Shown here: piece by piece, positions 41,256 through 43,346 of the stretch
Numbering within the stretch: position 1 is the first letter of the stretch
How the letters are laid out: the number at the start of each line of letters is the position of its first letter
Source: Saccostrea cucullata
Lineage: Eukaryota
Length of the DNA stretch: 64,000 nucleotides
Assembly (NCBI RefSeq): GCF_032062105.1
Contig: NW_026937312.1
Coordinates: 372,001 to 436,000 of the forward strand
Direction of reading: 5' to 3'
Position numbers and translations under genes: made by a program
The notes under the pieces: generated by a model
The model's input: only the letters and a program-made list of their open reading frames with translations
Databases searched by the model: none
Told to the model about the DNA's origin: nothing

Positions 41256-43346
41256 TCAGGAATGTTCATCCATATAGGATGCGTCATTTTCTTGTGCACC
41301 TATGTCGATTAAATCCAATTTATGTGGATGCGCCGTGTTTGTATAGCACTCGCTACAAATATCAAAATCAGGACAGGTATTACAGTGATACCTGAAATCA
41401 GTTATTGGATTATCACATTCATCACAAACAAATTCTTCTTCAAATTCGTCATAGAAATCATCTTCGTTGTCATCATCATCATTATCATAACCATCATCAG
41501 AGTGGTCAAATCTTCCAAAATCATCAAAACCCATTCTAAACAAAAGTTTGAGTTTTTCCAGGATATTGTAATCTTTAGAGAATCCATATTCCTTAAGGTT
41601 TTCTGTTTCCAGAATTTCTAAACTGGTTATCGCTTCTACCACATTTCCCCAATTCATGCCAGTGTTTGCTAGGTTGGCAATGCCATCCAGAACCCCCGAT
41701 TTTGATGCAATGAGCAGTTGCTTAGGATCTGATCTACTACATATGTAGGCTCTGGTGATATTGTTCGCACGATAAACCAGCGATGATTGGATGTAGTTTG
41801 AAATCAGTTTCGTCATGTTTGTGTCGAATGAATGTCTGAGTTCTGATTCCAAGGCAGTCACGGTTTCACTGTCAATACAATGTTTTGTGCCATCCAAGTC
41901 TTCTTCCAATCCATAAACTGCTCTTTTAACCATTCCTTCAATAACGTATTTCAATGTTGATATGCATGTATTTCGAAGTCTTCTCCCTAAAGAAGTCCTA
42001 CATTTGTGTGGCGGAAGGTAAAGCAAAGAATCATTCTCTATCCAGACCACTTTTGATTGAAGTATGGCAGTTTGAACCCTCATTCCAGCAAAGAAAAGCA
42101 AAGACTGATCAATATCTTTAAACAAGTTGTTGTTAGGAAGAATATAATGTGGACAGATCTGTGAGAACAGATTGCACTGTAATCTCTGAAGAAGCCCTAT
42201 AACTCTTGTAACCATTAATTGCTCTGTCCAGTCTCTCACAGGGACCTGCTCGCATTCCCACAGGAATACGATTTTCAGATGGTATGATTGCAGTGCCTTA
42301 CCGATTGGTGGGCAAAGAAATTGTCTCCAGATTGCTTTAAATAGCAGGTAACACATCCTCTGTGTTTCTGTAAGACTAAGCATTAGTTCTCGTTCAATCA
42401 AACAGAAGGATAGTCTCCATTCAAGGAAAGTTTTGGAATCTTTGGGGTATTTTGGTACGATGAGGCAACCCATGGAAATAAGTTGTTCTACAAAATTTGA
42501 AGAAGGAAACCCTGAAATTCTTTTCCTGTTTTGGAACTCGTTTGCTACAGAAGGCCAAGTTGAACAAATTATAGCTGGCGAACAATCGTATTGCAATGAA
42601 ATATCACTTTCAGTAATCAATAAAGTTGTTTTGACCGCAGGCCCTTCCTGGTTAACTATGTAAAATACAAAGGGATCCGAACTCTTGTCCACTTTTTCCT
42701 CTTCATCAGATTCATCAGTTTCCATTTTAGCATCTACGAGTTTGTCCGAGTTCTTGCAGTAGCCTGAATACTGAAAGTTTTCTACACTACATCTTAGACA
42801 AAGCATCATAAAGAACTCGTCTGTGAAGGCCTCTGGAGACAGATAAAACTCGTTAATGGATCCGTCTTCACTGGACACAATGTTACAAAGTCCACACCAG
42901 TTCTCGCTTTCATCTTTCAGATGAACTTTCAGTTGAACGAACCCTGGATTCTCCTTGCAGAATTCGATCTCTAACCACGTCTTGTCAGCGTTTGGTTGCT
43001 TTGATTCTATGGCAGTAATAGTCCTCAAAATGGCGGTGAGGTCAAGTTCTTCATTCTTATTGCCCTCGGAAACTTCACTAATGGAGAGTCCTTCACTCGT
43101 GCTTCCTATGAATTCCAAGTCTAATTTAGAAAAACAAGGATGAACTTGCACCTGAAATGGAAGATCATAAAACATCCATCCTTCTGGGGTTGTCACAGCC
43201 TTTCTTATTCGCTCTTTCAGATTCTTGAATTCTGCTGGTGGAACTGCGAGCTCCCTTAATTTTCTTAAAAGTTCATCATTTACCCTTGAATTAGTTGTTT
43301 TCTGAAAGTATTTTGTGGTTGCTGCACTACAGTATCGGATATCCAT
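41256..43346 (-). CDS. cGAS-like receptor / Mab-21 family nucleotidyltransferase with a C-terminal ZZ-type zinc finger, 696 aa, single coding exon
   Basis: FIGS(81-82)..EG...E100-L-D102, GPA, D254 (YDCSPAI), WP, LIVPK, EWRLSF..E, SYHLK...LW..E, CPHY..P..NLF give the Mab-21 fold. After an acidic tract, CDEC...RYHCNTCPDFDICSEC...HPH is a ZZ finger (41322-41426). A splice acceptor lies 7 nt upstream of the ATG. Confidence 0.92.
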   Translation of the reverse strand: MDIRYCSAATTKYFQKTTNSRVNDELLRKLRELAVPPAEFKNLKERIRKAVTTPEGWMFYDLPFQVQVHPCFSKLDLEFIGSTSEGLSISEVSEGNKNEELDLTAILRTITAIESKQPNADKTWLEIEFCKENPGFVQLKVHLKDESENWCGLCNIVSSEDGSINEFYLSPEAFTDEFFMMLCLRCSVENFQYSGYCKNSDKLVDAKMETDESDEEEKVDKSSDPFVFYIVNQEGPAVKTTLLITESDISLQYDCSPAIICSTWPSVANEFQNRKRISGFPSSNFVEQLISMGCLIVPKYPKDSKTFLEWRLSFCLIERELMLSLTETQRMCYLLFKAIWRQFLCPPIGKALQSYHLKIVFLWECEQVPVRDWTEQLMVTRVIGLLQRLQCNLFSQICPHYILPNNNLFKDIDQSLLFFAGMRVQTAILQSKVVWIENDSLLYLPPHKCRTSLGRRLRNTCISTLKYVIEGMVKRAVYGLEEDLDGTKHCIDSETVTALESELRHSFDTNMTKLISNYIQSSLVYRANNITRAYICSRSDPKQLLIASKSGVLDGIANLANTGMNWGNVVEAITSLEILETENLKEYGFSKDYNILEKLKLLFRMGFDDFGRFDHSDDGYDNDDDDNEDDFYDEFEEEFVCDECDNPITDFRYHCNTCPDFDICSECYTNTAHPHKLDLIDIGAQENDASYMDEHS

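Follow-up and report, generated by a model that had tools for sequence, protein, structure and literature searches.

A cGLR of oysters is fused to a ZZ zinc finger whose conserved pocket appears to be of the N-terminus-binding type

What could activate a cGLR that is acidic and ends in a ZZ zinc finger? The question is raised by a single unbroken open reading frame of 696 aa on the minus strand (positions 41256..43346) of a 64,000-nucleotide stretch of the Saccostrea cucullata genome, which is called the window here. Li et al. (2023) did not settle what switches on the many acidic cGLRs unresponsive to DNA and RNA (PMC9980059), and a ligand-binding module of known chemistry with a conserved pocket permits a specific guess for such a ligand. 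A preliminary description of the locus had suggested that the enzyme might be activated by newly formed protein N-termini instead of nucleic acid, or be coupled to autophagy. The fusion of Mab-21 and ZZ domains has already been catalogued and once been screened; the N-terminus as a trigger is a prediction.

The coding sequence consists of one exon, and no close paralogue was found in the species' own genome, where at least 64 cGLR-like matches were scored, none of them above 36% identity (the next-best match reached this value over 197 aa), and where the C-terminal third of the protein was matched elsewhere only via its ZZ finger. Seven nucleotides separate the start codon from a likely 5' UTR intron of 195 nt (43354..43548, minus strand) with canonical GT donor and AG acceptor, and a joint at 43355-43560 was present in contigs from two of four sequencing runs of a related species. 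The likely non-coding exon upstream of it (43549..43620, minus strand) contains an in-frame stop before the ATG with no in-frame Met in between, which rules out a longer N-terminus. An artefact or a mis-joined reading frame was ruled out as well, since the frame is open throughout, no joint lies within it in RNA reads of the related species, and Mab-21, Mab-21_C and ZZ occur together in 12 of the 13 matches of a protein search, that of the window among them. The expression data stem from four of 24 listed runs, and the species differs from ours by 87 positions in a contig of 1523 bases. Two poly(A) runs contributed 114 and 162 reads, which cover every bin of the reading frame at low depth, while a peak of read depth above the acidic linker reflects low-complexity sequence. 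As to the possibility that transcripts leave out the ZZ region, reads fall into the ZZ bins and no joint interrupts the frame, but the reads show transcription of this region for a relative only, and no single record spans from the core to the ZZ finger.

Several other features share the window with this gene. Just upstream of it, a 129-aa reading frame with HEAT repeats occurs in three intronless and nearly identical copies (44861-45250, 49422-49811 and 59210-59599, all minus strand), of which the second and third are 96% and 91% like the first at the DNA level; they represent a recent tandem amplification. On the plus strand we noted a rhodopsin-family GPCR (61368-62468, 367-codon open frame; 7tm_1, E 1e-29), an exon of a sestrin gene (10745-11125; PA26, E 1e-28) and an open frame of 1753 codons rich in Glu, Ser, Lys and Asn (30432-35690), which has no Pfam match and is probably a giant exon of a disordered protein.

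Judged by the published criteria for sequence and modelled structure, the protein is a cGLR. Pfam detected Mab-21 (aa 229-322, E 2e-10), Mab-21_C (aa 350-417, E 1e-13) and ZZ (aa 637-676, E 2e-11), each over its curated cut-off, and the catalytic core (about aa 20-443; 42018..43289, minus strand), delimited by Pfam, fold match and charge, comprises the NTase lobe and a helix bundle. The residues that the preliminary description had assigned to the NTase active site are all in place on the minus strand, namely G81-S82 (43101..43106), the metal-binding pair E100-x-D102 (43041..43049) and the third metal-binding residue D254 (42585..42587), which was aligned on the Sp-cGLR1 strand YSVDL and the MB21D2 strand LYDIV. 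Together with E85, they are invariant in all 19 aligned relatives that cover them, and R311, K337, Y355, K358, N407 and F409 are invariant in 20 of 20 relatives. The active-site pattern of Li et al. (2023) reads G81 S82, E100 L D102 L and Y D254 C in our protein, with two departures from the literal form, an Ile before GS and 149 instead of 50-90 residues ahead of the third Asp, despite which the orthologue from Crassostrea virginica is listed as a cGLR (PMC9980059). Predicted structural homology to cGAS and cGLRs was likewise found: the AlphaFold2 model (pLDDT 65.5, pTM 0.67) had Sp-cGLR1 (8GJY) as its top match in Foldseek (E 1.6e-12), and in VIA aa 25-442 matched mouse cGAS (4k97) with Z 21.0 and an rmsd of 2.9 over 320 aligned residues. 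By sequence, the best solved relatives of the core are Sp-cGLR1, MB21D2 and MAB21L1. The residues of a cGAS-type nucleotide pocket are retained, and we infer with moderate confidence that the protein is catalytically active.

The charge of the protein differs from that of nucleic-acid-sensing cGLRs, which are basic with a pI over 8.5 and a positive surface for the ligand. The pI of the whole protein is 4.73, residues 1-433 have a net charge of -13 and a pI of 5.06, and the core is acidic in 13 of 13 sequences (pI 4.86-5.48). Five of six oyster sequences have a mildly basic helix region (+2 to +4) at the N-terminus; in each of the 13 remaining relatives with coverage there, this region is neutral or acidic.

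Three further segments distinguish the protein. An acidic insertion in the NTase lobe (aa 196-222; 42681..42761, minus strand) is predicted to be disordered (pLDDT under 50); the equivalent stretch in relatives is variable in sequence and 20-59 aa long (33-59 aa in 18 of 19), and inspection of the relatives' alignment by eye revealed no conserved cleavage motif or caspase-type site across it. The core is followed by an all-helical domain that is conserved in orthologues (about aa 450-607; 41526..41999, minus strand; pLDDT 76.6). With aa 430-611 as query, Foldseek gave no match at E 0.001, the Atlas gave no usable match and VIA returned generic helical bundles, the best with Z 6.9 at an rmsd of 6.2; these results show neither novelty nor the absence of a known fold. 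An acidic linker (aa 608-639; 41430..41525, minus strand), recognised by its charge and acidic in orthologues too, leads to the ZZ finger, and the net charge of -20 in residues 601-650 bears out its earlier description as very acidic.

The architecture is not a one-off. Named orthologues with a ZZ finger come from Saccostrea echinata (81% identity), Ostrea edulis, Magallana gigas, Crassostrea virginica and the ark clam Tegillarca granosa, and a profile search for deeper relatives, in which five of the best 20 scanned have a ZZ finger, brought the total to 17 carriers, with identities as low as about 30%. A quick tree of the cores with 42 rows places all 17 in one clade of 19 members (SH-aLRT 99), in which two proteins lacking a ZZ finger (P0056 and P0060) are nested, suggesting a single gain of the finger and later loss. 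P0053 from Saccoglossus, P0057 from Ptychodera and P0055 lack the ZZ finger and combine an invariant active site and an acidic core with long acidic tails; the hemichordate relatives suggest that the acidic cGLR lineage predates the split between molluscs and deuterostomes. Since relatives without the finger keep the acidic core and the active site, the core does not always need the ZZ finger.

The ZZ finger itself (aa 640-676; 41319..41429, minus strand) has all of its zinc ligands, six Cys and two His (C641, C644, C655, C658, C664, C667, H673 and H675), and aligns with the ZZ finger of p62 without gaps. The three pocket Asp expected from the preliminary description are indeed present in this alignment, in which D642, D660 and D662 correspond to D129, D147 and D149 of p62 and R652 to R139, whereas p62 N132 is replaced by D645, a position occupied by Asp or Glu in 13 of 17 orthologues and by Asp also in the genome's own p62-like ZZ finger. 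In p62, D129, R139, D147 and D149 bind an N-terminal Arg-Glu, each of the three Asp is needed for binding of N-terminal Arg, and N132 contacts the Arg side chain (PMC6197226). The acidic site holds the initial residue's amino group in every solved ZZ complex covered by PMC9001736, where the same three Asp of HERC2 are described to bind the N-termini of H3 and SUMO1 as well as N-terminal Arg. Rarity of the three Asp was rejected as proof of function: among 30 of the genome's 63 ZZ matches, 25 other distinct fingers remained after removal of the gene itself, one partial match and three duplicates, and 13 of these 25 have the triad (nine have the triad plus the Arg), so that the triad alone is weak evidence. 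What exceeds chance is the conservation of the pocket across orthologues. D642 and D660 are kept in 17 of 17 and D662 and R652 in 16 of 17, whereas at most neighbouring surface positions of the finger the commonest residue is kept in only 4-7 of 17 (Fisher p 0.006, with the reservation that orthologues are not independent samples). The pocket thus appears to be of the N-terminus-binding type and to be under selection, and by analogy to p62 and HERC2 there is a strong case that the finger would bind a free N-terminal peptide. Because the same Asp of HERC2 also bind H3 and SUMO1, the pocket cannot tell an N-degron from H3.

Two other positions of the finger, I648 and H654, are invariant in all 17 orthologues. 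H654 (41385-41387, minus strand) occupies the position of p62 K141 and does not belong to the canonical zinc ligands; in the 25 other ZZ fingers counted in the genome, no His stands there. This genome holds a greatly expanded set of ZZ fingers, with matches at 63 places and often several per contig. One of the closer matches to the fused finger belongs to a separate p62/SQSTM1-like gene (L038, G000:C5957:102559-105687), in which exons resembling PB1, as recognised by eye, precede the ZZ finger.

Nothing but the resemblance of the fingers speaks for the proposed coupling to autophagy. Neither PB1 nor UBA, the hallmarks of p62/NBR1 receptors, was found in the protein by Pfam (E 0.1), the 45 residues ahead of the ZZ finger revealed no conserved LIR-like motif in 17 sequences, and the protein is not a p62/NBR1-type autophagy receptor.

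The orthologue from C. virginica (XP_022291417.1) is contained in Tables S1-S4 of Li et al. (2023; PMC9980059, bioRxiv 10.1101/2023.02.22.529553), where it is annotated with ZZ_NBR1_like (630-668), and no other ZZ row stands at the alphabetical end of Table S2. It was sample 11 in a screen of 140 proteins with poly I:C and 45-bp dsDNA as ligands and TLC after phosphatase treatment as readout (PMC9980059); N-terminal peptides were not among the ligands given there. The construct of 668 aa begins at D4 and would, if contiguous, end at V671, in which case it includes the ZZ finger and omits the tail. Its Note cell is blank, indicating that it was not among the 15 enzymes followed up, which could reflect poor expression or a complete lack of activity. 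'Zinc' is not mentioned anywhere in the study's main text (PMC9980059), and we came across no discussion of this orthologue there. We found no paper on the Mab-21/ZZ fusion itself in a search that did not extend to subscription journals and bioRxiv supplements, no mention of six accessions or locus tags in the main texts of papers, and no cGLR activated via an appended domain in the literature searched. Together with the acidity of all 13 cores, the absence of the orthologue from the follow-up of a dsDNA and dsRNA screen agrees with the earlier view that a nucleic-acid ligand is unlikely.

With these results, we tentatively favour the reading that the ZZ finger both recruits and switches on the enzyme, although it may well prove wrong. 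The finger would grip a partner protein by its free, basic N-terminus, either an Arg-type N-degron or an H3-like tail, and this binding would bring the cGLR into place and turn it on; the activated enzyme would then produce a cyclic dinucleotide, for which oyster STING is the predicted and likely receptor. STING_LBD matches were found at 12 places in the genome. The coupling of ZZ binding to activation, which we infer, is the weakest step, and in a complex prediction run without an alignment the docking of the finger (aa 636-684) on the core (aa 20-610) scored 0.00 twice, which speaks neither for nor against it. Of the proposal that neo-N-termini activate the enzyme, the part that stands is a conserved pocket of the kind that binds N-termini, whereas the N-degron is not singled out from H3 and SUMO1, and close relatives do without a ZZ finger. 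If the reading is correct, protein N-termini would be added to what cGAS-type enzymes sense in animals, and a conserved gene of farmed oysters would be concerned.

Alternatively, the ZZ finger may only tether the enzyme to the N-terminus of a partner in chromatin, cargo or a scaffold, and the activator would be a basic protein or another polycation acting on the acidic core, as has been suggested for other acidic cGLRs; we regard this as unlikely, if still a serious contender. It gains from the relatives without a ZZ finger, which retain the same acidic core and active site and for that reason allow the finger to be a tether, from the loss of the finger in two of the 19 clade members, and from the helical domain of 160 aa and the flexible linker that separate the finger from the core. 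The ZZ finger of fission-yeast Nbr1 moreover binds specific cargo N-termini (PMC9001736). Nothing found here indicates a conserved ligand surface on the core, which speaks against such an activator. Where an enzyme depends on clustering, as known for cGAS, being tethered can be enough to activate it, so that this reading overlaps with that of a ZZ switch.

The product need not be cyclic. A nucleotidyltransferase might instead add a nucleotide, for example, to a protein or small molecule that its ZZ finger selects by the N-terminus, which we consider improbable. One conserved copy, set amid at least 64 cGLR-like matches that diverge fast, looks more like a housekeeping gene, MB21D2 and MAB21L1 are among the closest solved sequences, and TLC of phosphatase-treated samples as used by Li et al. 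would miss such products (PMC9980059). However, the best match by sequence and in Foldseek is Sp-cGLR1, an active cyclic-dinucleotide synthase, and the nucleotide pocket has kept its cGAS-type residues.

Very unlikely, in our estimation, is a protease tripwire, in which a cut in the acidic loop (aa 196-222) activates the enzyme and its own ZZ finger catches the new N-terminal Glu or Asp, residues that can be arginylated. Loop cleavage does activate bacterial CD-NTases (PMC12991175), the loop is kept at the same position in spite of its variable sequence, and that of our protein contains Asp-Glu-Glu-Glu, to be compared with REEE, a model ligand of ZZ fingers (PMC6197226, PMC9001736). Against this stand the lack of a conserved cleavage motif and the presence of the loop in relatives without a ZZ finger; moreover, our loop precedes the third catalytic Asp, while that of EcCdnG (about 184-218, with D82/D84) probably follows it, judged by motif spacing, and the two are therefore probably not homologous. 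Hardly any chance is left for an ordinary dsRNA or dsDNA sensor with an incidental ZZ finger, which would agree with most characterised cGLRs (PMC9980059) and the mildly basic helix region of oysters, but not with the uniformly acidic cores, the neutral or acidic helix region of the other relatives, the missing follow-up of the orthologue or the conserved ZZ pocket.

Besides the ZZ finger, the C-terminus may contribute to the localisation of this enzyme. Eight of the 17 orthologues, namely P0003-P0009 and P0049, among them most of those from oysters and that of an ark clam, end in Cys-x-x-S/Q/C after an acidic stretch (CKQS, CNQS, CKQC, CNTQ or CPTS), compared to 3 of 143 other matches, a count in which some C-termini may be incomplete. 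On a yeast Ydj1 reporter, CKQS and CKQC were 100% prenylated (PMC10320760), and values of 2.01 for CNQS and 1.44 for CNTQ compare with 1.61 for CASQ and 0.13 for SASQ (PMC10320760; PMC9231725). As most CXXX sequences pass (PMC10320760), the signal lies in the retained Cys. CKQS and CKQQ are endings of Nap1-type proteins, CKQS being that of yeast Nap1. The tail of the window protein (41256..41300, minus strand) ends in DEHS and has no Cys at the fourth position from the C-terminus, as required for farnesylation; since this protein and that of S. echinata (DERT) nest among carriers, this points to a loss of the motif in their lineage. Seven non-oyster members also lack such an ending, and the predicted prenylation is dispensable in at least some lineages. 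The orthologues with the motif likely carry a farnesyl anchor, which would add tethering to membranes or chaperones and would parallel OAS1 p46. No paper linking a prenylation motif to cGLRs was found among the literature matches listed, and the farnesylation-type ending of orthologues, lost here, is a new observation at the level of sequence. The widest reading of our results, and a doubtful one, is that an ancient lineage of animal cGLRs senses proteolysis or misplaced histones in place of nucleic acid: protein N-termini that are newly exposed or arginylated would be read by the ZZ finger and would start cyclic-dinucleotide synthesis, by an enzyme that in most oysters would be farnesylated in the manner of OAS1 p46. 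The N-degron pathway would then be linked directly to cGLR-STING signalling, and this would provide the first protein ligand for an animal cGLR.

One of the closest known systems is XP_022291417.1 of C. virginica, whose cluster representative shares 63% identity across 98% of the length; it has the same Mab-21 and ZZ architecture and ends in CKQS, unlike our protein. Sp-cGLR1 (8GJY), human MB21D2 (7LT1) and cGAS have fold and catalytic residues in common with the window protein, which differs from them by an NTase lobe longer by about 30 residues, the helical C-terminal domain, the acidic linker, the ZZ finger and its acidic sequence. The ZZ fingers of p62/SQSTM1, HERC2 and Nbr1 share the zinc ligands and the p62-type pocket residues, while the finger described here is fused to an enzyme without PB1 or UBA and has His in place of p62 K141 and Asp in place of N132. 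Bacterial CD-NTases likewise combine a protein event as trigger with an internal disordered loop, although they lack a ZZ finger and their loop probably has a different position (PMC12991175). OAS1 p46, a prenylated nucleotidyltransferase sensor, parallels the eight orthologues with a Cys-x-x-S/Q/C ending, for which prenylation is predicted, and not the window protein. With respect to charge, close counterparts are Pd-cGLR (pI 5.39) and Sp-cGLR2 (pI 5.66), which resemble the C. virginica orthologue (pI 5.65) in their low pI; both are active without added ligand, no ZZ finger is listed for either, and a positively charged ligand other than nucleic acid was proposed for them (PMC9980059).
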